DNA of 64,000 nt from Bdellovibrionota bacterium (lineage in GTDB: Bacteria; Bdellovibrionota; UBA1018; UBA923). Position numbers and translations under genes: made by a program. This document shows positions 3,252 to 61,287 of the stretch, in pieces. A model generated the notes under the pieces. The model worked only from the letters and a program-made list of their open reading frames with translations, searched no databases and was not told the origin of the DNA. Location: contig JBFMCE010000003.1 in the NCBI GenBank assembly GCA_040754655.1, forward strand, positions 3,231 to 67,230. The letters run 5' to 3'. Numbering within the stretch: the first letter of the stretch is position 1; every line of letters starts with the position of its first letter.

Positions 3252-3353
3252 AAGAACTCTCTTTGCACGGGTCGCCAGGTTAAGGCAAGGTCCTCGTTAT
3301 GGTCGACTTGTTTTGGGCTTTCTTGGACTTCAAATCATGCTACAGTTGGGCCC

Positions 3354-39647: not shown

Positions 39648-42025
<2,378 letters not shown>

Positions 42026-42029
<4 letters not shown>

Positions 42030-45456: not shown

Positions 45457-45458
45457 AA

Positions 45459-46016
45459 ATGGCTTTGACGAAACCCCTTAAAGGAAAACGCATCTATCTG
45501 AGGGAAGTGAAGTTGACTGACGTGAATGATCGTTACGTCAGTTGGCTCAATGATAGCGAAGTCACCAGGTACCTTGAAGTCCGTTTTCACCCTCAGAACC
45601 TTGATACGATCGCAGGCTTCGTCGCTAAAATGCGGGAGAGCGAGAACGAATTTCTTTATGCGATCTGCTTGAGCTCGAACGACCAGCACATCGGCAATAT
45701 CAAGCTCGGTCCGGTGAATGCGCACCATCGTAGCGCTGATGTGAGCCTTTTCATCGGCGAAAAGAAATGCTGGGGGCAGGGCTATGCCGCCGAGGCGATT
45801 GGCTTGGTGACGCGATTCGCTTTTCGTGAGCTTGGGCTCAATAAGTTGAGGGCTGGTTGTTACGCGGGGAATGAGGGCAGCGCTCGCGCATTCGAGAGAG
45901 TCGGATACCGAAGAGAAGGTCTTTTGCGCGGACAAGTTCTCTGCGACGGCAAAGAAACCGACGTCATTACGCTAGGCCTAAGGGCCGTAGAGTATCGCGA
46001 GGAGGCGAATCGATGA
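45459..46016 (+). CDS. GNAT family N-acyltransferase (RimL-like)
   Basis: 185 aa with IGNIKL, GEKKCWGQGYAAEA (acyl-CoA pocket) and FRELGLNKL. Confidence 0.75.
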   Translation: MALTKPLKGKRIYLREVKLTDVNDRYVSWLNDSEVTRYLEVRFHPQNLDTIAGFVAKMRESENEFLYAICLSSNDQHIGNIKLGPVNAHHRSADVSLFIGEKKCWGQGYAAEAIGLVTRFAFRELGLNKLRAGCYAGNEGSARAFERVGYRREGLLRGQVLCDGKETDVITLGLRAVEYREEANR

Positions 46017-48055
46017 TCGCCGCGATCCTGCAGGCTCGTTTTTCATCTTCGCGACTGCCAGGAAAAGTTTTGAAACCTATTCTTGGCAAGCCGATGCTCG
46101 TACGCCAGATTGAAAGGGTGAAACGTTCGAAGAAGATTAATTCGATCGTGATCGCCACCAGCGTCGACCCGAGTGATGATGCCGTCGCCGAGGCAGCCCG
46201 TAGTGCCGGGGTTGGCTGCTTCCGGGGGAGCTTGGATGATGTTTTGGACCGGTTTTACAAAGCTGCGGGGAGCCTGCCTTCTCGTCCGGATCATCTTGTC
46301 CGGTTGACTGGCGATTGTCCGCTGATCGACCCGAGGCTGATCGATGATGTGGTCTCTTTTTGTGTTGAGGGAGACTTTGATTACGCCAGCAATGCGATCG
46401 AACCCACCTTTCCAGATGGGCTGGACGTCGAAGTATTCCGTTATGAGGTGTTGACTCAGGCATGGGAAGAGGCAAAGCTGCTTTCACAACGCGAGCATGT
46501 AACGCCCTTTATCCATACCCAACAAAATCGATTTAACGTTGGTCATTACAAAGGAAAAGTAGATTTGTCCTCGTTGCGCTGGACGGTCGATGTTCCGGCG
46601 GATTTTGAATTCGTGAATCGAATTTACGAAGAGCTTTATCCGTTAAGAGACGATTTTTCGATGGAAGACGTTCTGAAGTTGCTGGAACAGAAGCCTCGCC
46701 TGGCTGGGATCAATAAGGATTTAGAAAGAAATGAGGGTTTTAAAGTGTCTCAGCGAAAAGACTTTTTCATGAACCGTTATCAAAAATCCAATGTGCTATT
46801 GGAGCAAACTTTAAAAACAATCCCTCTTGGCAGTCAGACTTTCAGCAAGAGCAAGACCCAGTATCCGAAGGGAGTGTCTCCATACTTCATTGAACGCGCC
46901 CGGGGAAGCCGTGTCTGGGACGTCGATGGGAACGAGTATGTGGATTTTGTGAACGGTTTGTGTGCAGTGAACTTGGGTTATGGTGATCCCGATGTGACTA
47001 AGGCTGTCAAGGAGCAGCTTGAAGACGGCGTTATTTTTTCGCTCCCGCATCCCATTGAAGGCCAGGTTGCCGAGAAAATGGTAGAGATGATTCCGTGCGC
47101 AGAGATGGTTCGGTTCGGAAAGAATGGTTCGGATGCAACTTCTGGCGCCATTCGATTGGCAAGGGCTTATACACGGCGTGACCACGTCGCGGTCTGTGGT
47201 TATCATGGGTGGCAAGATTGGTATATTGGCTCGACTGCACGGAACCTTGGCGTTCCGCAAGCGACACGCGATCTCACCCATGCTTTTACTTATAATGACC
47301 TTGAATCCCTAAAGAAGGTCTTTAGCGACTATCCAGATCAAGTTGCTGCCGTGATCATGGAACCTGTAAATGCCCAAGAGCCCAAGGCAGGGTTTCTCAA
47401 TGAACTTCAGGAACTCACAAAACAAAATGGGGCTTTATTGATCTTTGACGAGACTATTACCGGGTTTCGTTTCGATAATGGCGGCGCCCAGGCGACTTAT
47501 AAAGTGACGCCGGATTTGGCTACTTTCGGCAAGGGTATGGCTAACGGGTACCCGGTCTCGGCGATCGTGGGTAAAGCAGACGTGATGCGCCTCATGGAGG
47601 AAATCTTTTTTTCTTTCACCTTTGGTGGAGAAACGCTTTCGCTAGCTGCAGCGCTGGCGACGATGACAAAGCTCCAGGCGCGCCCCGTGGTTCAGGCGAT
47701 GTATGAACAAGGCAAAAAAGTCATTGCAGGGGTGGAGAGGCTGATCGAGCAGTTTGAGATGAGCGATATGCTTTCGATCACTGGGAATCCTACTTGGTCT
47801 TTTCTAAATTTTAAGGAGATAGCCCCGTACACTCAATGGCAGATCAAGACATTGTTTTTGCAAGAGGTCTTTGCCCGGGGGATCTTGCTTCTTGGTACTC
47901 ACAATATGAGTTATTCACACAATGACGGCGATATTGAAAAGCTTCTGGCGACTTATAAAGAAGTTTTTCCCGTCTTAAGATCAGCTGTGAGAGAGAAGGG
48001 TCTTGAAAGATTGTTGTTCACTCAGCCTCTAGAGCCTCTTTTTAAATTGCGATGA
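46013..48055 (+). CDS. Bifunctional protein: N-terminal PseF/SpsF-like cytidylyltransferase (CTP_transf_3) fused to C-terminal class III aminotransferase (GSA-aminomutase-like)
   Basis: Residues 1-250: MIAAILQARFSSSRLPGKVL...DCPLIDP. Residues ~270-680: FVNGLCAVNLGYGDP...LIFDETITGFRF...TFGKGMANGYPVSA class III AT motifs. No stop or frameshift between the domains. Confidence 0.75.
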   Translation: MIAAILQARFSSSRLPGKVLKPILGKPMLVRQIERVKRSKKINSIVIATSVDPSDDAVAEAARSAGVGCFRGSLDDVLDRFYKAAGSLPSRPDHLVRLTGDCPLIDPRLIDDVVSFCVEGDFDYASNAIEPTFPDGLDVEVFRYEVLTQAWEEAKLLSQREHVTPFIHTQQNRFNVGHYKGKVDLSSLRWTVDVPADFEFVNRIYEELYPLRDDFSMEDVLKLLEQKPRLAGINKDLERNEGFKVSQRKDFFMNRYQKSNVLLEQTLKTIPLGSQTFSKSKTQYPKGVSPYFIERARGSRVWDVDGNEYVDFVNGLCAVNLGYGDPDVTKAVKEQLEDGVIFSLPHPIEGQVAEKMVEMIPCAEMVRFGKNGSDATSGAIRLARAYTRRDHVAVCGYHGWQDWYIGSTARNLGVPQATRDLTHAFTYNDLESLKKVFSDYPDQVAAVIMEPVNAQEPKAGFLNELQELTKQNGALLIFDETITGFRFDNGGAQATYKVTPDLATFGKGMANGYPVSAIVGKADVMRLMEEIFFSFTFGGETLSLAAALATMTKLQARPVVQAMYEQGKKVIAGVERLIEQFEMSDMLSITGNPTWSFLNFKEIAPYTQWQIKTLFLQEVFARGILLLGTHNMSYSHNDGDIEKLLATYKEVFPVLRSAVREKGLERLLFTQPLEPLFKLR

Positions 48056-49122
48056 GAGTAGCGATAAGAACCGACGCATCTATTCAAAGCGGTACTGGGC
48101 ACTTTTTCAGGTGCTTGACGCTCGCGCAAGACCTGAAGCTGAAAGGCGTTGATTCGGTCTTTGTCTGTCGCAAGCTTTCCCAGGATCTTTCGAGGCTTCT
48201 CTTAGAAAAAGGCTTTCCGGTCTTGGCTCTGAAGCGCTCTTTTGAGGAAGAAGACTGGGATTTAGATTTACCCGAGATGCAGCTTGAGTTCGGTCGATCT
48301 GGCAAAAGGCTGGATTGGTTGATCGTCGACCAATACTCACTCGACCGAAGATGGGAATCCCAGGCGCGCGAATTCGCAAAACGCATCATGGTGATCGATG
48401 ACCTCGCGAATCGCAAGCATGATTGCGATCTTCTTCTAGATCAGAACTACTACCAAGACAGCGCGACTCGATATTTAAATCTCGTGCCCGCACACTGTGT
48501 TCAGTTGCTTGGCCCGGAGTACGCTCTTTTGAGAAGCGAATTTCGAATTTCTCGCTCCAAACTGCGCCGCCGTTCGGGAGAGGTGCGAAGGGTTCTTGTT
48601 TTTTTTGGCGGTTCCGATCCAACAGGTGAGTCCCTGAAGGCAGTGGAAGGGATCGAAAGGTTTTCGTCTAACACCGATATGCGATTTGATTTAGTCGTTG
48701 GTGCGCTCAACCCTTCTCGAGAAGATCTCGTCGCCCGTGCGCGGAAACTACCCTACCTGACTGTTCACACCGAGACCCGGCAAATGGGTAAGTTGATGGA
48801 GAGCGCAGACTTGAGTCTGGGGGCAGGCGGAACCACGACCTGGGAGAGGTGTCGCCTGGGTTTGCCTGCACTGGTAACCATCGTGGCCGGAAACCAACGG
48901 CAGGTCGCGGAAGAACTATCGAGTTTTGGCGCGATACAGAATTTGGGCTGGCACGAGGATGTCTCGACTGATTTTCTTTATGAGTCGATGGTCAGCGTAT
49001 GCGGTGATCGCGATCGTGTTCGAAATATGAGTCAGAAGGCGCTCGAGGTCATGGGTACGAGCTTGGATTCAAATGAGCTCAAGGCTGTCGGCGCGATATT
49101 GGAGGCTGATTTTGCTGGATAG
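48052..49122 (+). CDS. pseG: UDP-2,4-diacetamido-2,4,6-trideoxy-beta-L-altropyranose hydrolase, PseG
   Basis: MRVAIRTDASIQSGTGHFFRCLTLA matches the PseG N-terminal signature. GT-B-like, 356 aa. Confidence 0.85.
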   Translation: MRVAIRTDASIQSGTGHFFRCLTLAQDLKLKGVDSVFVCRKLSQDLSRLLLEKGFPVLALKRSFEEEDWDLDLPEMQLEFGRSGKRLDWLIVDQYSLDRRWESQAREFAKRIMVIDDLANRKHDCDLLLDQNYYQDSATRYLNLVPAHCVQLLGPEYALLRSEFRISRSKLRRRSGEVRRVLVFFGGSDPTGESLKAVEGIERFSSNTDMRFDLVVGALNPSREDLVARARKLPYLTVHTETRQMGKLMESADLSLGAGGTTTWERCRLGLPALVTIVAGNQRQVAEELSSFGAIQNLGWHEDVSTDFLYESMVSVCGDRDRVRNMSQKALEVMGTSLDSNELKAVGAILEADFAG

Positions 49123-49684
49123 GAAAGATTGCATTCTTCGCGATGTCATGGTTTTCGACCTTGATCAAATTCTCGAGTGGCGAAACTCAAGCCGCATCCG
49201 CCTGAATATGTTTACTGATCACGAGATCACTCGTAGCGAGCATCTTGGGTGGTTTGAGCGCCAAAAACATGACCCGAAAACGAGGGTAAAGTTATTCGTT
49301 TACAAAAGTGGCCCTGCCGGGATCGTAACGTTTTCAGAAATCGATCCTGATTCAGCGAGCGCGAATTGGGGATTCTACTTAGGCGAGACGGAGCTTCCGA
49401 AGGGGTGCGGCCTGGCAATGGGTTTCTTGGCTTTGAACTTTGCGTTTGAAGAGATCGATTTGTCACGGGTTCACGGCGAATCCTTTTCATTCAATGAGGC
49501 CAGCGTGGGTTATCACCGCAGGCTTGGGTTCGTAGGCGCTGAGCCACGGTTTAAGCCTTTGCTGAAAAATGGTAAGTACGAAGAAATAGCTTCATTTGTT
49601 TTATTGAAAGACGCTTGGTTGCGTCGGAAACCTGAAATTGAACAGCGTATTTTTGGAGAGGTTTTATGCGAACCATCAGCATAG
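49112..49684 (+). CDS. pseH: GNAT N-acetyltransferase, PseH-like
   Basis: FDLDQILEWRNSSRIRLNMFTDHEI...HLGWFE follows the PseH W-R-N pattern. TTG start with GGAGG RBS; an ATG at 49148 is an alternative. Confidence 0.65.
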   Translation: MLDRKDCILRDVMVFDLDQILEWRNSSRIRLNMFTDHEITRSEHLGWFERQKHDPKTRVKLFVYKSGPAGIVTFSEIDPDSASANWGFYLGETELPKGCGLAMGFLALNFAFEEIDLSRVHGESFSFNEASVGYHRRLGFVGAEPRFKPLLKNGKYEEIASFVLLKDAWLRRKPEIEQRIFGEVLCEPSA

Positions 49685-50715
49685 GCGACAGGAAGATCGG
49701 GGAAGGGCAACGCCCCTTCATTATCGCCGAAATGTCGGGTAATCATAACCAGTCGCTGGAAAAGGCATTGGCCATTGTTGATGCGGCCGCCGACGCGGGC
49801 GTGCATGCGCTGAAGATCCAAACTTATACGGCCGATACCATGACGCTTGATCTCGCTGAGCGAGAGTTCGTTATCAAAGATCCGAAGAGTTTATGGAACG
49901 GATATTCGCTCTACAAATTGTACGAGGAGGCGCATACTCCTTGGGAGTGGCACAAACCCATTTTTGAACGGTGCCGTGCGCGAGGGGTAATAGGTTTTAG
50001 CACGCCTTTTGACCGAACTGCTGTTGAATTTCTCAAGACTTTGAACGTTCCTTTTTACAAGATCGCGTCTTTTGAAATTACGGATCTACCCTTGATCGCG
50101 ATGGTGGCTCGCACCGGGAAACCCATGCTGATGTCGGTGGGCATGGCTACGGCTGAAGAAATTGAAGAAGCTGTTGCAACGGCGCGTGCGGAGGGATGCG
50201 AAGAACTCGTGCTGCTCAAATGCACGAGCAGTTATCCGGCGAGTCCTGAGCACACGAACATCAGTACGATTGCTGATATGCGAAAAAGATTCCAATGCAA
50301 TGTGGGGCTTTCAGATCACACTATGGGAGTTGGGGTCGCCGTCGCCGCCATTGCTTTTGGGGCCACGGTCATTGAAAAACACTTTACGCTTTCTCGGACC
50401 GAGGGCGGAGTGGATTCCGCATTTTCTCTCGAGCCTCATGAGATGAAGAGCCTTGTGATCGAGTCTGAAAGAGCTTGGCAGGCGATTGGAAGCGTGAGCT
50501 ATGGCCCGACCGAAAAAGAGAGGCCATCTTTGCAGTATCGGCGATCGATATACATCGCTGAGGATCTGCGCGCAGGCGATGTTTTGAATGCGAAGAACCT
50601 TCGAATCATCCGTCCAGGCTTGGGGCTTGCGCCAAAGCACTATCAAGAACTCTTGGGTAAAGCTTTGAAGAGAGATGCTTCAAAAGGCACCCCAATGAGC
50701 TGGGATTTGGTATGA
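49666..50715 (+). CDS. pseI: Pseudaminic acid synthase PseI (NeuB family with SAF domain)
   Basis: PFIIAEMSGNHNQS NeuB motif and C-terminal SAF region RRSIYIAEDLRAGDVLNAKNLRIIRPGLG. Confidence 0.9.
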   Translation: MRTISIGDRKIGEGQRPFIIAEMSGNHNQSLEKALAIVDAAADAGVHALKIQTYTADTMTLDLAEREFVIKDPKSLWNGYSLYKLYEEAHTPWEWHKPIFERCRARGVIGFSTPFDRTAVEFLKTLNVPFYKIASFEITDLPLIAMVARTGKPMLMSVGMATAEEIEEAVATARAEGCEELVLLKCTSSYPASPEHTNISTIADMRKRFQCNVGLSDHTMGVGVAVAAIAFGATVIEKHFTLSRTEGGVDSAFSLEPHEMKSLVIESERAWQAIGSVSYGPTEKERPSLQYRRSIYIAEDLRAGDVLNAKNLRIIRPGLGLAPKHYQELLGKALKRDASKGTPMSWDLV

Positions 50716-51338
50716 CGGCAGTGAGTCGAATCGTTCTTTTGGATACCGGCATCGGCAACATCCAGTCGGTTGCAAACGTCTTGGAATACATTGGCGCTCA
50801 TTTCTGGGTCTCAGATAAGATCGAAGATTTGTCTAAAGCAGATAAGATCATTTTTCCCGGCGTAGGGACTTATGGCAACGCCATCAAGCGCATGAAAGAG
50901 AAGGGGCTCTTTGAGCCGCTGAAACACGCGATGAACGTCGATCAAAAACCTAGCCTTGGTATTTGCGTAGGCATGCAAGTTCTTTCGGAAATCGGATATG
51001 AGTTTGGTGAGCATCAAGGTTTAGGGATTATTCCTGGAAGCGTCAAGAGGCTGCAAACTGCCGATCGAAAACTGCGCTTGCCCCATGTCGGTTGGAACGA
51101 CGTGAGTCTTAACAAGGACTCCGCCCTTTTTAAGGATATTGAACAAGGCGCATCGTTCTATTTCCTGCACAGCTATTATTTTGAGCCCTCTGATCGTTCA
51201 AACATTTCTTGCACCGTAGATTACGGGCAAAGGTTCACCGCCGCGATCGAGAGGGGAAATGTTTTTGGCGTCCAGTTCCACCCTGAAAAAAGTCAAGGCC
51301 CTGGCATTCAACTGTTTAAGAACTTCGTGGAGATGTGA
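50712..51338 (+). CDS. HisH-like glutamine amidotransferase, copy 2
   Basis: IIFPGVGTY...GICVGMQ...VQFHPEKS. Confidence 0.85.
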   Translation: MTAVSRIVLLDTGIGNIQSVANVLEYIGAHFWVSDKIEDLSKADKIIFPGVGTYGNAIKRMKEKGLFEPLKHAMNVDQKPSLGICVGMQVLSEIGYEFGEHQGLGIIPGSVKRLQTADRKLRLPHVGWNDVSLNKDSALFKDIEQGASFYFLHSYYFEPSDRSNISCTVDYGQRFTAAIERGNVFGVQFHPEKSQGPGIQLFKNFVEM

Positions 51339-51344
51339 CGAGAG

Positions 51345-52157
51345 ATGCTAAAGCACAGGCTTATTCCGTGCCTATTCTTGAGAAATGGGGTTTTAGTTCA
51401 GAGCAGGGGCTTTAAGCGCTACCAAATGCTGGGAAATCCAGTGGTCGCCGTTGATCGCTACAACCAGTGGGGGGTCGATGAATTGATTTACATCGATATT
51501 ACGCCCGGAGCCTATAGCGGCCTGAACCGCGAGGACGTCGCTTCGCCGAGTCGCAACAACATTTTAGATATCATTCGTGACGTCTCGAAGAAGTGTTTCA
51601 TGCCCCTGACTTTTGGCGGTGGGGTGCGAACCTTGAAAGACATTGGCGATAGGCTCGCTTGTGGCGCAGATAAGGTGACGGTCAACACGGCGGCCTTAGA
51701 TGATCCCAAGTTCATTTCAGAGGGTGCAAAAGAATATGGCTCGCAGTGCATTATCCTCTCGATCGATGTCAAGAGGGCGGAAGATGGTTCTTGTCGAGTT
51801 GTGCGCAGTGGCAAAGCGATGACTGATCTTGATGTGATCGAATGGGCTAAAAAAGCTGAGGGACTGGGGGCGGGAGAAATCTTCCTCAATTCCGTTGATC
51901 GCGATGGATCAGGACAAGGTTATGACCTTGAGTTGGTTCGTACGGTCGCACGCTCAGTAAACGTGCCTGTCATTGCTTGTGGAGGAGTCGGAAACTGGGA
52001 CCACTTGGTAGAAGGCGTCAGGCAGGGAGAGGCTTCGGCAGTAGCGGCAGCCAATATTTTCAGCTATAAAGAACAAAGCATTATCGAAGCAAAACAGTAC
52101 TTGATCAAATCCGGCCTGAATTTCCGTCCTGACGGAGCGGGTGAAGGAGTCAAATAA
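51345..52157 (+). CDS. HisF-like cyclase subunit homologue, copy 2
   Basis: RLIPCLFLRNGVLVQSRGF, FGGGVRT, ACGGVGN. Confidence 0.85.
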   Translation: MLKHRLIPCLFLRNGVLVQSRGFKRYQMLGNPVVAVDRYNQWGVDELIYIDITPGAYSGLNREDVASPSRNNILDIIRDVSKKCFMPLTFGGGVRTLKDIGDRLACGADKVTVNTAALDDPKFISEGAKEYGSQCIILSIDVKRAEDGSCRVVRSGKAMTDLDVIEWAKKAEGLGAGEIFLNSVDRDGSGQGYDLELVRTVARSVNVPVIACGGVGNWDHLVEGVRQGEASAVAAANIFSYKEQSIIEAKQYLIKSGLNFRPDGAGEGVK

Positions 52158-52161
52158 AGCC

Positions 52162-53283
52162 ATGCAGTATTGTTCACGTTGTGTTTATCCAGAGATCGCG
52201 GTCAACCTTCTCTTAGATGATGAAGGGATCTGTTCCGCCTGCCGGTCTTATGAAGAGTTTGAAAAGCTTCCACTTGAGTTCTGGAACCAAAGAGAAGTTG
52301 CCTTTCGAGATCTTTTAGAGAGCTATCGCAATAAGAAACAAGACAACTATGATTGCATCATTCCGGTTTCGGGCGGGAAAGACAGCTATTGGCAGACCCA
52401 TCTCGTAAAAAATGTTTATAAGCTGACTCCGTTGTTGGTGACCTATCATGGCAACCGTTTTCTTCCCGAAGGCGAAGAGAACCTCAATAACATGCGGCAT
52501 GTCTTCGGAGTCGATCACGTCATTTTTCGCCCAAGCACCGAAATGTTGAAGAAACTCAACAGAGCTGGCTTTAAGAAGACCGGAGACATGAATTGGCACA
52601 ACCATTGCGGCATTTACACCTATCCGGTTCAAATGGCGGCTCAACTCAATATTCCTTTGATCGTTTGGGGTGAAACACCTTGGGATATTTCTGGCATGTT
52701 CGGGGCCAACGACTTCCCTGAGATGAGCGCGAGAGAGCGCCTTGAGCATGGGCAGCGCGGTTTTGATTGGCACGACTTCGTGGGCGTGGAGGGGCTTGAG
52801 GCTAAAGACTTGCTCTGGGCGCGTTACCCAAGCGACGAAGAGATCAAGCGCGTGGGGATTCGCGGCATTTACGTCGGCAACTTTATCAAGTGGGATGAGA
52901 ACAAGCATTCCAAGCTGGTTGAGGAGAAGTACGGTTTCCAGAAAGCCAGGCAGCCCTTCGAGCGTACGTACCGGCTTTTCTCGAACTTGGATGATATCCA
53001 TGAAAATGGCGCGCATGACTATCTGAAGTACATTAAATTTGGCTATGGCCGGGCTTCGGATCACGCTTCAAAAGATATCCGCAAAGGTTATATGACCCGT
53101 GAGCAAGGTATTGAAATGGTCCGAAAATATGACGCCGTCAAATCGAGTGATACCTACAATTGGCTTGAGTACGTGGGGATGAGTGAAAAGGAATTTGATG
53201 AAATAGCCGACACGTTTCGCGACAAACGGGTCTGGCGGAAAGATTCAGCGGGCAATTGGGTCAAAGACAATCTTTGGGATTGA
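52162..53283 (+). CDS. N-acetyl sugar amidotransferase, PP-loop ATPase, copy 2
   Basis: CSRCVYPE...CSACRS zinc ribbon and PP-loop IPVSGGKDSY, paralogous to the ORF at 42921. The ATG at 52162 has an AGGAG RBS. Confidence 0.8.
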   Translation: MQYCSRCVYPEIAVNLLLDDEGICSACRSYEEFEKLPLEFWNQREVAFRDLLESYRNKKQDNYDCIIPVSGGKDSYWQTHLVKNVYKLTPLLVTYHGNRFLPEGEENLNNMRHVFGVDHVIFRPSTEMLKKLNRAGFKKTGDMNWHNHCGIYTYPVQMAAQLNIPLIVWGETPWDISGMFGANDFPEMSARERLEHGQRGFDWHDFVGVEGLEAKDLLWARYPSDEEIKRVGIRGIYVGNFIKWDENKHSKLVEEKYGFQKARQPFERTYRLFSNLDDIHENGAHDYLKYIKFGYGRASDHASKDIRKGYMTREQGIEMVRKYDAVKSSDTYNWLEYVGMSEKEFDEIADTFRDKRVWRKDSAGNWVKDNLWD

Positions 53284-53289
53284 GACACG

Positions 53290-54288
53290 ATGATGAAATA
53301 TGAAGATATCAGCCCGTCTTCGCTCTTAGGCGATCAGAATGCGGCGATGATGCAAGATGTTGCAATGCTACAAGGGAGGCGACGAGAGTTCGTCGAAGTC
53401 GCTTGTCCAGCGTGCGCGGGTTCTCGGCGCACGTCTCTGTATGAGAAATATGGGATGCAGCACGTTGCCTGTGGTGATTGCGAGACCCAGTATATTTCGC
53501 CGCGACCCACCACCAAGGTATTAAGAGACTTTTACGCGCACTCAAAAAACTACGAATACTGGGCCAAACACATCTTTCCTGCAACAGCCGAAGTGAGGCG
53601 AGAGCGCATTTTTAAGCCCAGGGCAAAGCTCATCGCGGATCTCAGCCGGCAGCACGGCGCAAGACCCGGACTTCTCATGGAAGTCGGAGCAGGTTATGGC
53701 TTCTTTTGCGAAGAGATAGGCAAACTTCAGGTTTTTGACCGCGTTGTTGGCATCGAGCCCACCCCTCATTTGGCCGAGATCTGCCGTAAAAAAGGGATTG
53801 AGACGATTGAGTCGGTAATCGAAGACGTCAACCTTGAGGTGAAAGCCGATGTGGTCGTCAATTTCGAGGTCATCGAGCATCTCTTTGACCCCCATGCTTT
53901 CTTGGCTGCATGTCTCGAGCGACTCAATCCTAAAGGGCACTTGATCTTGACTTGCCCCAATATCGCGGGCTTCGAAACACAGATGCTCAAGAGGTCTTCT
54001 GACACGATTGACCATGAGCATTTGAATTATTTTTCTCCTGCTTCCCTGAAAAAACTGGCGGAACGAGTGGGCTTTCAAGTGATTCGTGTGCAGACACCGG
54101 GTGTGCTTGATGTGGATATCGTGTACCAACGGCTGAAAGACCAAGTGAAGGAAGGTATTGAAGTAGATCCTTTTATCCAAAGAATTCTCTTTTCCCAAGA
54201 TGAGAGCTTGCGCGATCAGTTCCAGAAGTTTTTGACTGAAGCAGGGCTTTCATCGAACATGATGCTGATCGCGCAAAAACCTCGATGA
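53290..54288 (+). CDS. Class I SAM-dependent methyltransferase with N-terminal Cys4 zinc-ribbon (paralogous architecture to 3354-4247)
   Basis: CPACAG...CGDC ribbon, LMEVGAGYGFF motif I, FEVIEHLFDP. Confidence 0.7.
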   Translation: MMKYEDISPSSLLGDQNAAMMQDVAMLQGRRREFVEVACPACAGSRRTSLYEKYGMQHVACGDCETQYISPRPTTKVLRDFYAHSKNYEYWAKHIFPATAEVRRERIFKPRAKLIADLSRQHGARPGLLMEVGAGYGFFCEEIGKLQVFDRVVGIEPTPHLAEICRKKGIETIESVIEDVNLEVKADVVVNFEVIEHLFDPHAFLAACLERLNPKGHLILTCPNIAGFETQMLKRSSDTIDHEHLNYFSPASLKKLAERVGFQVIRVQTPGVLDVDIVYQRLKDQVKEGIEVDPFIQRILFSQDESLRDQFQKFLTEAGLSSNMMLIAQKPR

Positions 54289-55892
54289 AGGCGTTCTCTT
54301 TACTGAAAAAAATCTGCAGGCGCGTGCTTCTTGATTCTGACGAACGTCATTTCGCACGCCACCAGGCTGAATACTCAAAGCGTTTGCTGAAGAATACGAA
54401 GCAGGACAAGAGGCGCATCCTCATCGACTTCTTCGACTCGAATTTAGTGGTTTACAGTTCAGGCCTTACTGCGCGTTATCTTGCGAGCAAGCTCAATGCC
54501 TCGATCGATGGTTTCCTCTTCGCTCGTGGCTGGGCCGGAAGACTCGGGATCCCGAGCCGAAGAATCGAGAAACTTTATGGGGCTTTTGGGGCGCGACCTA
54601 GGCTTTCTTTCAAAGAAGGGGAAAGGTTTTCGAAAGAGGCTCAAGAATACGCCGATCAGACGTTCTCAAGCCTGAAAAACAAATGGGATGTGGTCAACCT
54701 TTCAATCGATGGGGTGAAGATCGGTGATCTCGTGTATGACACCTACCTTCGAGCGGGCCGCTGGACCGTTGACCTCGCCGATCCGAGGCTAAAAGAAATC
54801 CTTTGCGACGCTTTTCTGATCTTCAAGCTTTGCAGAGAGTACTTCCGAAACCACGACGTCTGCGCAGTCATTACCTCTCACTGCGTGTATATTTCTCATG
54901 GCATCTTGGTCAGGGTCGCCAGCACTTTCCGAGTTCCTGTATTTTTCGTCATGGACCCTTATAAATTCCAAGTCGTCGAAGTTCGCGAAGATAACAATCA
55001 CTATCATTTTTATTACCACCGCTATAAAGAGCTCTTTGCGCGATTTAACGAAGTTGAAAAACAAAAGCATCGCGACGAAGCAAGAAAGGTTTTGCTAGAG
55101 CGGCTGTCAGGCAAGATCGACAGCGGGATCGCCGACATCCTGGAAGACGGTAGACCCGGATTGCACGGTTATGGCGCATTTTCAGAAGGCCGCTTGCTCA
55201 AAGAGACGGGGCGCCCTCGCGTGATCGTCATGCTCAATTGTTTTCTCGATGCCCCTCATTGTTATCGCGACATGCTCTTCCCTGATTTTTGGGAATGGAT
55301 CAACTTCGTGCTCAGTCGCGCTTCTCAGACATCGTTTGATTGGTACGTAAAGCCCCATCCCGGAGGTCTTCCTCAGAACGATCTTGTCTTGGAAGAACTC
55401 AAGAGAAAATACCCCAAAGTGAATTTCCTCGGTCGGTCTGCGTCGAATCGGCAAATTGCCGCAGAAGGAATCGACGCGATGTTCACGGTGTTCGGCACCG
55501 CGGCCCATGAGTTTGCTTACATGGGCATCCCGGTCGTGACCGCGGGAGACAACCCTCACGTCAACTATGGGTTTAACTTTCATCCTCGCACGGTTGAGGA
55601 GTACGAGAAATTCATCGCGAATGCCGGTCATTTGAAGATCGAGATCGACAAAGCCGAGATCGAAGAGTTTTTTTACATGCATTACATCGATGCGCATCGA
55701 CCGAATCCGTTCGGTGCGATCTGCGTTGATGATTCTTTGAGCTCGCAGGTTGTTGGCGCCCGGGTCAATCATCCAAGCATACTCAAGGATTACGTCAGGA
55801 CGGAAACCCAAGAGAAACTGCAAAAATTAGAAGCTTATTTGGGTGATTTTTTTGGGAACTATTTCCCTCAGATCAAAAACGAGCCTGGCTGA
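54285..55892 (+). CDS. Large hypothetical GT-B-like protein (Capsule_synth/TagF-like?), paralog group A; candidate nonulosonate transferase
   Basis: 535 aa. VIVMLNCFLDAPH...WYVKPHPGG...FTVFGTAAHEFAYMGIPVV shares the [KR].HP / S/T-rich / G.PV pattern with 14543 and 59629. It is the last gene of the pse operon. Confidence 0.3.
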   Translation: MKAFSLLKKICRRVLLDSDERHFARHQAEYSKRLLKNTKQDKRRILIDFFDSNLVVYSSGLTARYLASKLNASIDGFLFARGWAGRLGIPSRRIEKLYGAFGARPRLSFKEGERFSKEAQEYADQTFSSLKNKWDVVNLSIDGVKIGDLVYDTYLRAGRWTVDLADPRLKEILCDAFLIFKLCREYFRNHDVCAVITSHCVYISHGILVRVASTFRVPVFFVMDPYKFQVVEVREDNNHYHFYYHRYKELFARFNEVEKQKHRDEARKVLLERLSGKIDSGIADILEDGRPGLHGYGAFSEGRLLKETGRPRVIVMLNCFLDAPHCYRDMLFPDFWEWINFVLSRASQTSFDWYVKPHPGGLPQNDLVLEELKRKYPKVNFLGRSASNRQIAAEGIDAMFTVFGTAAHEFAYMGIPVVTAGDNPHVNYGFNFHPRTVEEYEKFIANAGHLKIEIDKAEIEEFFYMHYIDAHRPNPFGAICVDDSLSSQVVGARVNHPSILKDYVRTETQEKLQKLEAYLGDFFGNYFPQIKNEPG

Positions 55893-56524
55893 CGTTCTTT
55901 TACGATGCGTGCCGGAGTTCCGACGGCAACTACGTTTTGGGGAATGTCTTCCACCACCGCAGCACCCGCGCCGATGAGCGCATGCTCGCCCACATTGATC
56001 TGATGGATGATCGAGGCGCCAAGCCCCACCATCGACATCTTGCCGATCTTGCAGTTGCCTCCGAGAGTTGCACCGGGTCCGATGCTGGCAAAGTCTTCAA
56101 CCGCGCAGTCGTGGTCGATGCTCGAAGCCGTATTGACGATGCAATGAGAGCCTATTTTTGTTGAGGGGTTGATGCAGGTCCCGGCCATGACGACGCTTCC
56201 GGGTCCGATTTCCACATCTTTGCCAATTTGCGCACTGGGATGGATGGCGACTACAAATTGAAAACCTGGGGCCAAGCGCCCGATTCTTTCAACAAGCTTT
56301 GACCTCGCCCAATTGTCGCCGATGGCCACGATCCCTTGAGTGACTTTGAATTCACCCAATCGAGACTCTGGGCCTAAAACGGGGTAACCAAGGGCTGTGG
56401 CCGTCTTTACAGAATCGTCGAGGATACCGACGATCTTGTACTTGCCTTGTTTTTCCAAGATATCGATGATGACTTTGGCGTGGCCGCCCGCTCCAAAGAC
56501 AAGAACCGGTTCTTTCATTCCCAT
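55868..56524 (-). CDS. NeuD/PglD-family sugar N-/O-acetyltransferase (left-handed beta-helix), LegH-like
   Basis: N-terminal Rossmann-like PVLVFGAGGHAKVI followed by hexapeptide repeats IGPGSVVMAGTCINPSTKIGSHCIVNTAS. Confidence 0.8.
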   Translation of the reverse strand: MGMKEPVLVFGAGGHAKVIIDILEKQGKYKIVGILDDSVKTATALGYPVLGPESRLGEFKVTQGIVAIGDNWARSKLVERIGRLAPGFQFVVAIHPSAQIGKDVEIGPGSVVMAGTCINPSTKIGSHCIVNTASSIDHDCAVEDFASIGPGATLGGNCKIGKMSMVGLGASIIHQINVGEHALIGAGAAVVEDIPQNVVAVGTPARIVKERQPGSFLI

Positions 56525-56533
56525 ACCTATAAA

Positions 56534-56555
56534 TTGGCGCTGATGATAACGCCAA
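56534..56555. promoter_or_regulatory. Inverted repeat TTGGCG-N10-CGCCAA in a divergent intergenic region
   Basis: Read directly from the sequence. Lies between the NeuD-like start (56524, minus) and the PtmE-like start (56619, plus). Confidence 0.25.
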
Positions 56556-56618
56556 AGCTAACGAATTGCAGTCTGAATATCTAGTAAAAAAGCCGAGTTA
56601 TGGCTATAGATAGAAACT

Positions 56619-57668
56619 ATGAAGAACTGGCGAGATGCTTTGGTCAGAACGGATTCCACGGTTCGGGACGTGATTCAGAACCTGAACACAAGTCGAATTC
56701 AAATCGCTCTTGTGGTCGATTCCAACGAGACTTTGCTGGGCACAGTGGTGGACGGGGATATTCGTCGCGCGATCCTGAAAGGAATACCCCTTGAATCCAA
56801 TATCAGCGCGATCATGAACAAGTCTCCAAAAACCGCGCGTACGCAAGAAACTCGCGAAGAGATTCTCGCGAAGATGAAGAAGACCAAACTGCGCCATTTT
56901 CCGATCGTTGATGAGAAGGGCCGAGTCGTGGGGCTTGAGCTCTTGGAAGAGCTGATGCTTCCGGCCCAGAAGAACAATGAGGTTGTGATCATGGCTGGAG
57001 GAATGGGCAGCCGCCTCGGCGAGTTGACGGCTGAGCGCCCAAAACCCTTATTGAATGTCGGGAATAAGCCTTTGCTTGAAACCATTTTGCTGAGTTTTAA
57101 ACAGCAAGGATTTTTTAAGTTCTCGATCTCGGTTCACTACAAGGCCGATATGATCGAAGACCACTTCAGGGACGGCTCAGACTTGGGAGTGCAGATCAAA
57201 TACCTGCGCGAAGACCAAAAACTAGGCACGGCAGGCGCATTAGGGCTGATCGAGGAAAAACCCCATTTGCCTTTTGTCGTCATGAATGGCGACCTGCTGA
57301 CGAAGGTCAATTTCGAGCGGCTTCTTGAAACCCATGAAGAGCAAAAGGCGGCGTTGACGATGTGTGTGCGCGAATATGACCTTCAAGTCCCGTACGGGGT
57401 TGTTCGCCTTGAGAACCAGAAGGTCGTGGGGATCGATGAAAAACCTGTTCAGCGCTTTTTCGTGAACGCTGGCATCTATGTGCTTGATCCATCAGTACTC
57501 GAGTTTATACCAAAGAATCAGTCTCTCGATATGCCCGCGCTTGTCGAGACTTTGATCAAGAGTCGGTTGAAGACGGTGGCTTTTCCGGTGACCGAGTATT
57601 GGCTTGATATCGGGCGCCACTCTGACCTTGAGCGCGCCAAGGATGAATTTCTCGGAGAGTTCAAGTGA
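56619..57668 (+). CDS. CBS-domain sugar-phosphate nucleotidyltransferase, PtmE-like (GlcN-1-P guanylyltransferase type of legionaminic acid pathway)
   Basis: Two CBS-like segments (QIALVVDSNETLLGTVVDGDIRRA; LRHFPIVDEKGRVVGL), then the NTP-transferase motif VVIMAGGMGSRLGELTAERPKPLL. Confidence 0.75.
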   Translation: MKNWRDALVRTDSTVRDVIQNLNTSRIQIALVVDSNETLLGTVVDGDIRRAILKGIPLESNISAIMNKSPKTARTQETREEILAKMKKTKLRHFPIVDEKGRVVGLELLEELMLPAQKNNEVVIMAGGMGSRLGELTAERPKPLLNVGNKPLLETILLSFKQQGFFKFSISVHYKADMIEDHFRDGSDLGVQIKYLREDQKLGTAGALGLIEEKPHLPFVVMNGDLLTKVNFERLLETHEEQKAALTMCVREYDLQVPYGVVRLENQKVVGIDEKPVQRFFVNAGIYVLDPSVLEFIPKNQSLDMPALVETLIKSRLKTVAFPVTEYWLDIGRHSDLERAKDEFLGEFK

Positions 57669-58363
57669 TTCAAGGGAAGAAAGTCCTTGCGGTCATTTGC
57701 GCTCGCGGAGGCTCAAAGGGCATTCCTCGTAAAAATATCCGGGCGCTTGGCGGAAAACCGCTCATTGTTTGGAGCATCGAAGAGGCGAAGAAGTCACGCT
57801 TTATCGATCGTCTTGTTCTCTCATCCGATGACCAAGAGATCATTCAAGTTGCGGAAAAGTTTGGTTGCGAAGCGCCATTCGTGCGGCCGGCTGAATTGGC
57901 TGGTGACGAAGTCTCGGGAGTAGATCCTGTTTTGCATGCCCTTAAAGAGTTGCCCGGTTATGACTACGTTGTGCTGTTGCAGCCGACTTCACCCTTTCGA
58001 ACGGCTCAAGACATCGATGGTTGCATTGAGCTTTGCTTAGAGAAGAGTTCTCCATCGTGCGTCAGTATTGCCGAGGCCGAGCAGAGTCCGTATTGGATGT
58101 TTAGCCTCAATGAAGGTTTGTGTCTTTCGCCTTTATTCGACCTGAAGTCTATGCCAACGCGCAGGCAAGAAGCCAAGACCGTGTACTCGCTCAACGGAGC
58201 GGTCTATGTCGCTAAGACGGACTGGCTTTTGAAAACGAGAGGTTTTCTGACTGCCGAGACATCGGGGTATCTCATGCCAAAAGAGAGGTCGCTTGACCTT
58301 GATGATGAGCTCGATTGGGATGTGGCACAAGCACTGCTCGCTCGAAAAAGGGGAGGCGCGTGA
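57665..58363 (+). CDS. Acylneuraminate cytidylyltransferase family (CMP-legionaminic acid synthetase LegF-like)
   Basis: LAVICARGGSKGIPRKN NeuA motif. GTGA stop/start overlap with the PtmE-like gene. Confidence 0.8.
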   Translation: MIQGKKVLAVICARGGSKGIPRKNIRALGGKPLIVWSIEEAKKSRFIDRLVLSSDDQEIIQVAEKFGCEAPFVRPAELAGDEVSGVDPVLHALKELPGYDYVVLLQPTSPFRTAQDIDGCIELCLEKSSPSCVSIAEAEQSPYWMFSLNEGLCLSPLFDLKSMPTRRQEAKTVYSLNGAVYVAKTDWLLKTRGFLTAETSGYLMPKERSLDLDDELDWDVAQALLARKRGGA

Positions 58364-59661
58364 AGAAGTTCGGCATTCTTCTAGCAGCTCTTGTGAGCGT
58401 ATTGATCCTTGCGGAAATCCTTGTCGTCACGCTGGTGGATCTCGAAGCATACAAACCCATAGTACTAGCGAAAGTACACGAAAGAATAAGTGGGAAGCTT
58501 GAGCTGGGAAAAATTCGTCCTAGCATTTGGACGGGTCCCAAAATTTGGATCGAAAGCATGCGCCTTGCGGATGAACGAGGACGAACGGCCATGAAGGCGC
58601 AAGACGTGACTCTGCGTTTCTCGCTCCTTTCGTTATTGGCGGGGCAACCCAAAGTTCAACTGAGGCTCGATAGCCCGGTGTTTACGCTCATCAAAGACAA
58701 AAGCGGTCCATACAATGTGCAGATGCTGCTTGCAAAACCGAAGGGTCGATCGACATCGGCGGTGCTCGATTGGAAAGAGCGCCTCATCGGTTTTGCAAAG
58801 AAAACCAAAGGCAAACTCTTGATCAGCGGAGCCCTTGTCGAAGTCATAGAAGAGGAATCAGGAAGAAGAGCCACGATCGATGATGCAGATCTCAAAGTCG
58901 ATAATATTGCCGCAAGGGGCGACATCTCGTTCGAAGCTTCAACCGAACTCAGAACGATCATACACCATGGGATCAGGCTCTCTGGCTTAGCCTCTACGGC
59001 CGGCATAGCGTCGTTATCGGATGGAGAAGATGGATCGAAGATCGTGGCGTTTCAGGCAAGGGTGGATTTGAGCCCTGTGGACATCGCTTATCATGGAAAG
59101 TTCAACAAGCACAAAGGCGCAGCCTTTCTGCTAGACGCCAAGGGATCTGTTTCCAAACAAAAGATTGATCTTTCTTCAGCAGAATTTCGGCTTGGCCAGA
59201 TGTTTCTCGAAGGCAATGGATCGGTTGCAAAACAAGATGATGCCCGGTCTGTCGATTTGAAAATGAAGTCTAACAGGGTCGACCTAGGCGAATTGGCCAA
59301 GATTCTGCCTCGGGCGAAGTCATCAGGTCTAGACGGAACCGTTGAGTTTTCAGCCCATGTTTATGGCCTCAAAAGCGATATTCAAGGCAACGGCAATGCG
59401 CATTTGTCGGAAGTCACGTGGAAGCCCAAGATGACCCAGGCGGCTTCTCTTATGATTACGGGTGACATGAAAGTCGATCTAGATCGACAGCGCGGAATGA
59501 ATGTAGATGCGAACGCAAAAGGATTTGATTCCAGCCTTTTCAGCAAAGCCATGAAAACTTTTCTAAACTCTCGCTTTTCCTCGGGCTCCGCTCAAGGAAA
59601 GCGGGATATTGACCACGATCTCATACAACTACTCGCCGGACTCGAAGCGGCCCGGCGTTGA
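58360..59661 (+). CDS. AsmA-like envelope protein (N-terminal membrane anchor, beta-rich periplasmic domain)
   Basis: Start VKKFGILLAALVSVLILAEIL (GTG, GGGAGG RBS) gives a single TM anchor followed by an extended domain as in AsmA/TamB-like proteins. Confidence 0.45.
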   Translation: MKKFGILLAALVSVLILAEILVVTLVDLEAYKPIVLAKVHERISGKLELGKIRPSIWTGPKIWIESMRLADERGRTAMKAQDVTLRFSLLSLLAGQPKVQLRLDSPVFTLIKDKSGPYNVQMLLAKPKGRSTSAVLDWKERLIGFAKKTKGKLLISGALVEVIEEESGRRATIDDADLKVDNIAARGDISFEASTELRTIIHHGIRLSGLASTAGIASLSDGEDGSKIVAFQARVDLSPVDIAYHGKFNKHKGAAFLLDAKGSVSKQKIDLSSAEFRLGQMFLEGNGSVAKQDDARSVDLKMKSNRVDLGELAKILPRAKSSGLDGTVEFSAHVYGLKSDIQGNGNAHLSEVTWKPKMTQAASLMITGDMKVDLDRQRGMNVDANAKGFDSSLFSKAMKTFLNSRFSSGSAQGKRDIDHDLIQLLAGLEAARR

Positions 59662-61287
59662 GTTTCTTTTCAGTGCATAGCCAGCCAAATGATCTACGGT
59701 CCGACTGACTTCGGGATTGATGGCAGGATTGAGTTGCGGCGCCTTAGACTGATAATCGATATAGGCATAAACTTTTTCGTTATACACCGGCAGGCTATAA
59801 CACCGGTCGAATAGATACCAATAGGAAAACTTCAAGAAGTTTTCCCGGTGATCCTGTTGCTTGAACTTTGCAATGAGATCGGCGGGTGCTGAGAGCATTT
59901 CAAAGTATTCTTCGGGCGTCTTAGGCTCAAATGCCGATCCCGAGCCATAAGTACGGGATCGGGCAGCCAAGACCGCTGGTTTATTCAGGTAAGGCAATTC
60001 AAGCCCGATCATCCCGTCAAAGACCAGCCCAACATCCACATGATGGAGGATGAATTCATAGGTGTTCAATTTAACATCCGAGGAAATGATTGAAATGTTC
60101 TTGATTTGATCCAGGTGCGGAACGCGCGCACGGATCATGGGTTCAAGCTTTTGGCTGTACGTGAGAATTGTGGCTTCGCTCGGATGGATCCTCAGCACAA
60201 GGTGACTTTCAGGATGTGATGAGAAGAACTTCACGGTGGCCACGATCCAGTCGATCGCGCTCTTGAAGAGAGTATTTCTTTGGACAATGTCCCCATCCCA
60301 GATGACGTTGGGAAAGAGCGCAAAGGTGTGTTTCGCATTTCCTTTTTCGATTTTCGGAAGAGTCCACGTTTCCATGCCTTTATAATAACGTCTGGTGTCA
60401 ATGGCGCCCCCGGAAATGCGAGACCGGAAATACTCTTCCACCTGAAGTTTTTGTTCCGCTGAAAGAGCGGTTTTTCGAAAAGTTTCCCAGCTTCGATCGT
60501 TGGTGATGAAGTTGACTGTATTTTCGTAAATGCTGATGCGTTGCGGCCGATAGACTGAAGGGTAATAAACCAAGCAGGATTGCCCTTTTGACTTTAAATA
60601 GTCTAAAGCCGGACCCCAAACAGAATAGATTCCATGCGAGGTGACATACAGGTTAGGCTTCAAATGCTGCTCAACGTATCGCGCTACTTTTTTCGAGATC
60701 TGGCAGTTCTTCAGGCATACCTCGAAGAACATCGTGTATGCAGGATCCTCCCAACGCATTTCGCCGCTTTGGAAGTATTTACGAACCGAGCTTTCCGCAT
60801 GGTTTCGATCCCCTTGGTTAAGAGGCAGATCCTCTCGGATGGTTTTTAGGATCGTGGAGTACCGGACGATCTCGATGTTCGGATGGGAGAAGATCTTGTT
60901 TGAAAGAAAACCATATCCCCCTCTTAAGATTCGGTTCTTAAGAGTCTTGTGGAATTTGTAATCATCGTCAGAATGGGTTCTTAGAAAATATTCCCAGTGC
61001 TCGAGTTGAAAATCGTCCATGAGGATCTTCACCTGAAAGCCATCACAAGCCATCAAATAAGCCAGGTAATGCTCGGGATTGACGTCAGGAAGGTAGGCCC
61101 CGACCGCGTTGAAAACGATGCAACCTTCGCTCGAGCCTTTGTAGCCAATCTTCTTGATTTGCTCACGCAAGCCGTAAGAGTCAAAAAGTTGTTTGCTGAT
61201 CTTATGAAATCTGTTCATCTTCTTTAAAATCCCGCTCGGCGATTTTTCCAAGCCAATCCCAATAAAAAACAGGGCTGACCCCGTCAC
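59629..61287 (-). CDS. Large hypothetical GT-B-like protein (Capsule_synth/TagF-like?), paralog group A; candidate nonulosonate transferase
   Basis: 552 aa. HTFALFPNVIWDG...LVLRIHPSEAT...LELPYLNKPAV shares the pattern with 14543 and 54285. GTG start at 61287 overlaps the upstream LegI-like gene by 86 nt; an internal ATG at 61218 is an alternative. Confidence 0.3.
   Translation of the reverse strand: MTGSALFFIGIGLEKSPSGILKKMNRFHKISKQLFDSYGLREQIKKIGYKGSSEGCIVFNAVGAYLPDVNPEHYLAYLMACDGFQVKILMDDFQLEHWEYFLRTHSDDDYKFHKTLKNRILRGGYGFLSNKIFSHPNIEIVRYSTILKTIREDLPLNQGDRNHAESSVRKYFQSGEMRWEDPAYTMFFEVCLKNCQISKKVARYVEQHLKPNLYVTSHGIYSVWGPALDYLKSKGQSCLVYYPSVYRPQRISIYENTVNFITNDRSWETFRKTALSAEQKLQVEEYFRSRISGGAIDTRRYYKGMETWTLPKIEKGNAKHTFALFPNVIWDGDIVQRNTLFKSAIDWIVATVKFFSSHPESHLVLRIHPSEATILTYSQKLEPMIRARVPHLDQIKNISIISSDVKLNTYEFILHHVDVGLVFDGMIGLELPYLNKPAVLAARSRTYGSGSAFEPKTPEEYFEMLSAPADLIAKFKQQDHRENFLKFSYWYLFDRCYSLPVYNEKVYAYIDYQSKAPQLNPAINPEVSRTVDHLAGYALKRNSTPGRFESGE

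Follow-up and report, generated by a model that had tools for sequence, protein, structure and literature searches.

To our knowledge, few enzymes that attach pseudaminic acid (Pse) or legionaminic acid (Leg) are known: Maf and FlmG, which act on flagellin, KpsS1 (glycosyltransferase family GT118) and a pair of enzymes from Tannerella. The gene analysed in this work is a further candidate for this role. It lies at positions 54285-55892 (+) of a 64-kb stretch of DNA from a Bdellovibrionota bacterium (GenBank assembly GCA_040754655.1, contig JBFMCE010000003.1), which is called the window below, and it is the last gene of a Pse biosynthesis (pse) array.

Knowledge of nonulosonate transferases has been called scarce (PMC5420450). 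In Tannerella forsythia, Tanf_01245, TFUB4_00887 and BFO_1060 have been genetically proven to be transferases of Pse/Leg derivatives, and the NCBIfam entry NF046086, the BFO_1060 family, corresponds to this Tannerella nonulosonate transferase family (PMC5420450). KpsS1 of Acinetobacter baumannii is a retaining Pse5Ac7Ac pseudaminyltransferase, and KpsC/KpsS-like enzymes can therefore be of this kind (PMC12887879). Sialyltransferases and retaining (beta-)Kdo (3-deoxy-D-manno-oct-2-ulosonic acid) transferases have in common a (K/R)xHP motif which binds the cytosine of cytidine monophosphate (CMP); the retaining Kdo transferases of families GT99, GT107 and GT140 additionally carry a QxxxD motif, the Asp of which is the nucleophile of a double displacement (PMC12887879). 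This nucleophile has been proven for KpsC (D160 in the peptide ...VLVVDQTFND160MS...EIWVK192(V)HP; PMC10148158). KpsS1 and KrkA use a Y-E base motif, and KpsC and WbbB have a modified GT-B fold in which the two domains are split by a helical sub-domain made from the linker together with an extension at the C-terminus (PMC12887879).

A predicted CMP-nonulosonate transferase of an undescribed family

The best explanation for the gene is that it encodes a cytoplasmic CMP-nonulosonate glycosyltransferase with a modified GT-B fold, belonging to an undescribed family (probability about 0.7). It would add a sialic-acid-like sugar, Pse or a close relative of it, to a glycan of the cell surface. This reading is based on the predicted GT-B fold, the homology to KpsC, the conservation of the motifs, the packing of the gene in its operon, the association of the family with Pse clusters and the precedent of the Tannerella enzymes and KpsS1. 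In its best-supported form, the family has a deep relationship to the retaining beta-Kdo transferases GT107 (KpsC), GT99 (WbbB) and GT140 (KrkA), and related by function to KpsS1; by analogy with these enzymes, the mechanism is probably retaining. The gene and the parts of the protein on which the argument rests are the following:

54285-55892, +, target gene, predicted CMP-nonulosonate glycosyltransferase, 535 residues (open reading frame (ORF) list, identity, AlphaFold2 model)
54402-54989, +, N-terminal Rossmann-like domain, about residues 40-235, presumed acceptor-binding half (secondary structure of the model)
54720-54752, +, family motif I-G-D-L-V-Y-D-T-Y-L-R, including Y151-D152 (conservation, motif translation)
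55014-55106, +, interdomain helical linker, residues 244-274 (AlphaFold2 model)
55218-55634, +, C-terminal Rossmann domain, about residues 312-450, presumed CMP-sugar-binding half (AlphaFold2 model, hhalign coverage by KpsC)
55236-55250, +, N318-C-F-L-D322, corresponding to the nucleophile motif Q-x-F-x-D in retaining beta-Kdo transferases (hhalign, conservation)
55350-55361, +, K356-P-H358-P359, (K/R)xHP CMP-binding motif (alignment with KpsC, conservation)
55650-55877, +, C-terminal helical extension, residues 456-531 (AlphaFold2 model)

The 535-residue ORF starts with ATG and stops with the TGA at 55890-55892 (ORF list and translation). Its product matches "hypothetical protein AB1540_01060", from a Bdellovibrionota metagenome-assembled genome, with 100% identity, and every source calls it hypothetical. 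The AlphaFold2 model of the protein, built with a 61-sequence family alignment (A1), has high scores (predicted local distance difference test 93.1; predicted template modelling score 0.92) and shows two Rossmann-like domains, with a low-confidence loop (residues 275-311) after the linker. The linker and, with it, the extension at the C-terminus resemble the helical sub-domain of KpsC and WbbB and may be equivalent to it, as judged from the model. Foldseek searches of the PDB with this model returned GT-B proteins: KpsC gave the best target-normalised template modelling (TM) score (0.46-0.51), the polysialyltransferase 5wcn was also matched, and UDP-N-acetylglucosamine (UDP-GlcNAc) 2-epimerases appeared with E-values of 1e-6 and TM-scores of only 0.2-0.3. 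An earlier note on this DNA had named the lack of a transferase fold as one finding that would speak against its proposal of a transferase; the fold predicted by AlphaFold2 and Foldseek is that of GT-B glycosyltransferases.

Homology to KpsC was detected by aligning the family profile (A1) with a profile of 85 KpsC domains plus the two KpsC modules of E. coli CFT073 (87 rows). The hhalign probability was 91.4% (E 9e-7) over 291 columns across both domains, at a sequence identity of approximately 18% between target and KpsC; the N-terminal part of this alignment is of low reliability, and the comparison with the single E. coli KpsC-N sequence was too weak (6.6%). In register with KpsC Q156/F158/D160 are N318/F320/D322 of the target, K356-P-H358-P359 is in register with KpsC K192-V-H194-P195, and E409 with the Glu of KpsC G-F-E-A-L-L. 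The spacing from Asp to His is 36 residues in the target vs. 34 in KpsC and KrkA.

These positions are also the conserved ones among the 241 full-length family members in which conservation was counted. D322, the predicted catalytic nucleophile by analogy with KpsC, is kept in 240 and F320 in 228; at position 318, H occurs in 205 members, N in 24, S in 10 and Q in one. The (K/R)xHP motif expected of the group is present, with K356 in 240 members, H358 in 238 and P359 in 230, and E409 is found in 240. In the N-terminal domain, G147 is invariant (241 of 241), Y151 is kept in 224, and at position 152 there is D in 196 members and E in 27; this conserved Y151-(D/E)152 pair is reminiscent of the Y-E base motif in KrkA and KpsS1, a likeness to be taken as a lead and not as a result.

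That the gene encodes another GT-B enzyme, such as a hydrolysing 2-epimerase of the WecB/NeuC/PseG type, a nucleotide-sugar hydrolase or a TagF-like phosphotransferase, is very improbable. UDP-GlcNAc 2-epimerases did have the top Foldseek E-values, and this candidate was rejected for its low global TM-scores and because PseG is already encoded in the operon and NeuC in the neighbouring cluster. The only significant profile-profile relation is that to KpsC, with the nucleophile Asp and KxHP in register, and KxHP is a signature of CMP-sugar transferases (PMC12887879).

Comparison with described transferases

The closest structural relatives differ from the target in size and surroundings. With respect to the KpsC module, the target is about 200 residues longer and has a larger N-terminal domain, and it falls below the threshold of the Pfam family Capsule_synth (PF05159; KpsC, KpsS; GT107). 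The contexts of the family, compared with those of KpsC, WbbB and KrkA, are nonulosonate (Pse/Leg) genes and not Kdo/kps genes, and a nine-carbon donor sugar is therefore predicted.

KpsS1 is like the target in the predicted reaction (Pse transfer from CMP-Pse onto a glycan), and both belong to the KpsC/KpsS-like structural class. At the sequence level, proteins of the KpsS type match Capsule_synth whereas the target family does not, and the family profile aligned with KpsS of E. coli CFT073 with an hhalign probability of only 0.4%. This was a weak test, made with a single template sequence, and the target was compared with KpsS1 only via E. coli KpsS (30% identity to KpsS1).

The Tannerella genes resemble the target gene in position, just downstream of the CMP-nonulosonate genes, and in one strain with a methyltransferase gene between, as is the case here; their products also have an HP motif and a GT-B-type prediction (PMC5420450). 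They differ in length (about 445 residues vs. 535), in a TagB-like domain and in a DXD motif, and NF046086 gave no match for the target and none for the 61 family members at E <= 10. For the flagellin transferases Maf (MAF_flag10) and FlmG there was no Pfam match in the target, and no flagellar genes were found among the annotated genes of the window.

Bacterial sialyltransferases and polysialyltransferases of GT38, GT52 and GT80 are inverting and carry a D/E-D/E-G base motif in the N-terminal domain. There is no conserved D/E-D/E-G in the family consensus, though the HP motif is present, and the one such tripeptide found on reading the target (E-D-G in L-E-D-G-R-P-G) lies within the low-confidence loop. 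No relation to GT38, GT52 or GT80 was detected at the sequence level.

Position at the end of the pse array

The target is the 16th and last of 16 same-strand genes (39874-55892, +) that overlap or are separated by 6 nt or less, the first being pseB:

39874-54288, +, fifteen co-directional genes upstream of the target (NCBIfam and Pfam matches, gaps of 6 nt or less)
54285-54288, +, ATGA, 4-nt overlap of the target start with the stop of the upstream methyltransferase gene (sequence, ORF coordinates)

The order is pseB, pseC, aldo-keto reductase, WbuX, HisH, HisF/WbuZ, GNAT, a cytidylyltransferase-aminotransferase fusion, pseG, pseH, pseI, HisH, WbuZ, WbuX, an S-adenosylmethionine (SAM)-methyltransferase and the target, with NCBIfam/Pfam scores of 550 bits for PseB, 549 for PseC and 488 for PseI. 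The ATGA overlap suggests, from the sequence, that translation of the target is coupled to that of the methyltransferase gene. A promoter/terminator scan found no sigma-70-like promoter in 53000-57000, hence none before the target, and terminator-like sites at chance level. This packing bears out the claim of the earlier note in so far as the gene closes the operon-like array. Its statement that the gene lies directly after the CMP-Pse genes applies only in part: pseI is five genes upstream, and the immediate neighbours of the target encode enzymes that decorate Pse, namely the SAM-methyltransferase and a WbuX/HisH/HisF amidotransferase set.

There are two complete WbuX/HisH/WbuZ(HisF) sets in the operon (42921-45456 and 50712-53283), and the methyltransferase gene is at 53290-54288. 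The two amidotransferase sets and the methyltransferase suggest acetamidino and methyl decoration of Pse, such as a Pse derivative with two acetamidino groups, or with one N-methylated acetamidino group.

Genomic contexts of the homologues

The surroundings of the family were analysed at 85 non-redundant loci with homologues, by BLASTP of all ORFs in the fetched loci against the pathway proteins of the window itself, counting genes within 10 kb. Nonulosonate-pathway genes were found at 69 of these loci, distributed as follows:

Pse-type genes (PseB, PseG, PseI), 42 of 85 loci
Leg/neuraminic acid (Neu)-type only (NeuB, NeuC), 7 of 85 loci
Both Pse and Leg/Neu types, 2 of 85 loci
Only cytidylyltransferase or sugar aminotransferase, 18 of 85 loci
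No nonulosonate genes, several being contigs of a few kb, 16 of 85 loci

The homologue came directly after pseI at 10 loci and directly before pseB at 14. In the cultured Halopseudomonas bauzanensis CGMCC 1.9095, for instance, it comes after pseB-C-F-G-H-I. All ten contexts that were read gene by gene agreed with the association, or were compatible with it where the contig was short.

Same-strand wzm/wzt genes were present within 10 kb upstream at approximately 32 of the 85 loci, with wzt directly adjacent at 12, and Wzt carried a Wzt_C domain at the three loci looked up individually in Pfam (L003, L004 and L007). This linkage places the family in polysaccharide operons of Verrucomicrobiota and Bacteroidota that depend on an ATP-binding cassette (ABC) transporter. 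An operon form with a NusG/UpxY-like gene, wzm, wzt, the homologue and pse genes was seen at L003, L004, L007 and about 30 other loci, and in L007 the homologue is the only recognisable glycosyltransferase between wzt and the pse genes. Operons of the L007 type hint at a Pse-rich or Pse-capped polysaccharide exported by the ABC transporter.

These loci bear on the question of whether the target adds a single internal residue or is instead a polymerase, like KpsC or a polysialyltransferase, or a chain-terminating capper of a nonulosonate polysaccharide, like WbbB (GT99), which makes a terminator read by Wzt. The wzm/wzt linkage, the Wzt_C domains and the lack of another recognisable transferase between wzt and the pse genes in L007 all speak for such a role, as do the polymerising activities of the structural neighbours KpsC and polysialyltransferase. 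For the target itself this role is nevertheless doubtful: the 64-kb window contains no Wzm/Wzt, and its many other glycosyltransferases, initiating phosphoglycosyltransferase, PglK/MsbA-like exporter and Wzy_C-family protein fit a heteroglycan; the sequence does not tell single from processive transfer.

Evidence against the assignment and the choice of donor

Several results weigh against the transferase reading or parts of it. The target has no Pfam or NCBIfam match; a PDB sequence search with the family profile gave noise only and no relative; Capsule_synth matched one of 61 family members, weakly (E 0.037); and none of the 61 aligned members gave a meaningful NCBIfam family. Within the motifs, the Q of QxxxD is replaced by H or N in the family, the general base E66 of KpsC aligns with the non-conserved M223 (hhalign), and no conserved His counterpart of the KpsC acid H94 was identified on reading the alignment. 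As regards the donor, the target gene directly adjoins a Neu/Leg-type cluster. The closest homologue of the target (P0002, 52% identity) has a complete Leg-type cluster as its neighbour, Pse genes not being visible there, and another homologue (locus L093) belongs to an exotic NeuB cluster. As a guide to Pse vs. Leg, the contexts of the nearest homologues are mixed.

Provided that the protein is a CMP-nonulosonate transferase, a Pse derivative is somewhat favoured as the donor, and a Leg/Neu donor is rather unlikely. Decorated Pse is the likeliest donor because of the presumed translational coupling to the pse operon and the dominance of Pse contexts in the family. The alternative is the same kind of enzyme with a Neu/Leg-type nonulosonate from the downstream cluster (NeuD, CBS-nucleotidyltransferase, cytidylyltransferase, NeuB and NeuC) as donor. 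Besides the direct adjacency of this cluster, the P0002 locus carries a matching gene set (PtmE-like, cytidylyltransferase, NeuD, NeuB and NeuC), and 7 of the 85 loci are of the Leg/Neu type only; moreover, Tannerella enzymes that are 81% identical use different donors, Pse vs. Leg (PMC5420450), and sequence relatedness therefore does not fix the donor. We consider this alternative unlikely: the target is on the strand of the pse operon and probably translationally coupled to it, being convergent to or apart from the Neu/Leg genes; in the Neu/Leg array, neuB is directly followed by a distant paralogue belonging to that array (59629-61287); and Pse-type contexts outnumber Leg/Neu-type ones in the family (42 vs. 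7). The dedicated pseudaminyltransferase proposed by the earlier note is supported by the predicted GT-B fold, the CMP-sugar-transferase motifs, the operon packing and the association with Pse clusters, and is qualified by the Leg-type surroundings of the closest homologue.

Proposed mechanism

The scheme that follows is inferred throughout, from the catalytic activity and its retaining mechanism to the donor sugar, the acceptor and the part played by D152. The enzyme would act at the inner face of the membrane, using as donor a CMP-activated, acetamidino- or methyl-decorated Pse made by the 15 upstream genes, and as acceptor a lipid-linked glycan built by the other transferases of the 64-kb glycan island. 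CMP would be held in the C-terminal Rossmann domain via K356-x-H358-P359 and E409. By analogy with KpsC, WbbB and KrkA, D322 would attack the anomeric carbon (C2) to give a covalent enzyme-sugar intermediate. A hydroxyl group of the acceptor, bound at the N-terminal domain and perhaps activated there by the conserved pair Y151-D/E152, would then resolve this intermediate with net retention (double displacement).

Size, distribution and significance of the family

A full profile search of 1.84 billion cluster representatives gave 4765 clusters at E<=1e-3; with stricter cut-offs, 3163 (E<=1e-10) and 1524 (E<=1e-30) remained. A word-indexed search returned 234 relatives, every one of them unnamed and without Pfam domains, and no description of the family was found in the literature. 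In one-genome-per-species data, 129 species had a relative of the target. Among the 80 loci listed from these data were many Chthoniobacter and other Verrucomicrobiota, Bacteroidota, Bdellovibrionota (including the cultured Bdellovibrio sp. HCB2-146), Pelagibacteraceae (including HTCC8051), Thiobacillus, Sulfurovum and Sulfurospirillum; also among them were the cultured species Propionivibrio dicarboxylicus, Pusillimonas minor, Herbaspirillum lusitanum and Halopseudomonas bauzanensis. In a Pelagibacteraceae single-cell genome (SAR11; L065, 9800-13000) there were two tandem copies of the family, and several other Pelagibacteraceae, including HTCC8051 (L087), had one copy adjoining Pse genes. 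Searches of plasmids with the target (tblastn) and of complete E. coli genomes with an enterobacterial homologue (blastn) found nothing and gave no link to a typed O-antigen.

We rate the family as new and deeply divergent within the GT-B transferases of CMP-ulosonic acids. A wider proposal, put forward tentatively and at slightly less than even odds, is that it is a new, very large family of retaining Pse/Leg transferases acting via a covalent Asp322-sugar intermediate, which fills the place of the missing enzyme for Pse/Leg attachment in many environmental lineages (Verrucomicrobiota, Bacteroidota, SAR11 and Bdellovibrionota) and which, in the Wzm/Wzt-linked operons, acts as polymerase or chain-terminating capper of nonulosonate O-polysaccharides. 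If true, the family would likely receive a separate CAZy number, as happened with GT118 and GT140, and the covalent Asp mechanism would carry the unusual double displacement known from the beta-Kdo transferases into another deep branch and over to nine-carbon sugars. The thousands of unannotated clusters tied to Pse/Leg operons, both in abundant environmental bacteria such as Pelagibacter and Chthoniobacter and in the five cultured species named above (Bdellovibrio sp. and the four others), would be a concrete candidate for glycobiologists, and assignment of the family would improve the annotation of surface-glycan loci in metagenomes. A transferase is expected at such a position, and the finding is therefore moderately surprising; what makes it useful is that a very large, unannotated family is named and that a covalent adduct at D322 is predicted in a testable way.

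Downstream cluster and supposed paralogues

Downstream of the target is a second nonulosonate cluster, with NeuD (-), a CBS-nucleotidyltransferase (+), a cytidylyltransferase (+) and an AsmA-like gene (+), continuing on the minus strand with neuC, neuB and ORF 59629-61287. It was named Neu/Leg-type because neither legB nor legC was visible. The features next to or related to the target are the following:

55868-55892, no single strand, 25 nt shared by the target and the convergent NeuD-family gene at their 3' ends (ORF coordinates)
55868-56524, -, convergent NeuD/PglB/VioB-family sugar N-acetyltransferase gene (TIGR03570, 224 bits; PglD_N; Hexapep)
59629-61287, -, distant paralogue of the target, closing the neuC-neuB array on the minus strand (hhalign, hmmsearch)

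Both the 25-nt overlap reported in the earlier note and its naming of the convergent gene as NeuD-like were correct, the former to the nucleotide and the latter by the TIGR03570 match. Alignments of the target family reach to about residue 526, and the NeuD model covers the acetyltransferase up to residue 206 of its 218; since only non-conserved protein tails overlap, the 3' overlap is considered mere ORF geometry and no sign of function.

The earlier note had also described a family of paralogues in the window, of which one member was retained. ORF 59629-61287 aligned with the target by hhalign with a probability of 94.4% (E 9e-8, 310 columns, 16% identity) and scored 13.8 bits in the profile hmmsearch; its N-V-I-W-D is aligned to N-C-F-L-D of the target, and its L-R-I-H-P to V-K-P-H-P. 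It has no Pfam or NCBIfam match, and a metagenome scan for close relatives gave none. It ends the neuC-neuB array just as the target ends the pse array, which speaks for a division of labour between the two. The likely start of this ORF is M24, which still overlaps neuB.

ORF 14543-16504 (-) was rejected as a paralogue for want of evidence (BLASTP E 0.07; hhalign probability 1.1%; profile hmmsearch 0.2 bits, in the HP region only), what it has in common with the target being a local K-A-H-P motif. It encodes 653 residues with a V-K-A-H-P-Q motif, adjoins the PglK/MsbA-like ABC exporter gene, and matched only itself in an indexed search of 5.8 billion proteins. Its C-terminal part gave a weak match to NF046086 (E 7e-4), for which the target gives none, and from its sequence it may be a third, unrelated candidate CMP-sugar transferase.

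Other genes of the window and of homologous loci

The remaining window is a large glycan island, with GT4 and GT2 transferases, a PMT_2 protein, UDP-glucose dehydrogenase, a Bac_transf initiating transferase, a Wzy_C-family protein and the PglK/MsbA-like ABC exporter. The fusion protein of the pse operon (46013-48055, +; 680 residues) consists of a CTP_transf_3 cytidylyltransferase domain and a class-III aminotransferase; its PseF and KdsB matches are weak, and the aminotransferase part is like glutamate-1-semialdehyde aminomutase. A stronger PseF-like protein (157 bits, below cut-off) is encoded in the neighbouring cluster (57665-58363). Between this cytidylyltransferase gene and the paralogue 59629-61287 lies a gene with weak AsmA/DUF748/YhdP-like matches (58315-59661, +).

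The aldo-keto reductase (KidO-like, 179 bits; 42026-42928, +) comes directly after pseB-pseC, and the same pseB-pseC-reductase trio was seen again in L092 (reductase at 2487-3374), where it converges with a homologue that is 44% identical to the target. In L093 (1059-11632), a 40%-identical homologue follows a cluster with NeuB, cytidylyltransferase, aldehyde dehydrogenase, an enolase-superfamily enzyme, a ketopantoate-reductase-like protein, a transketolase/DXP-synthase-like protein and a HAD hydrolase, which may be a pathway to an unusual ulosonic acid. In L005 (11689-15873), of the Leg type, the target homologue is followed by a 502-residue protein with a weak Capsule_synth match and then by a 605-residue protein like ORF 59629-61287 of the window (58 bits); several transferase candidates with HP motifs co-occur in this locus, as in the window.

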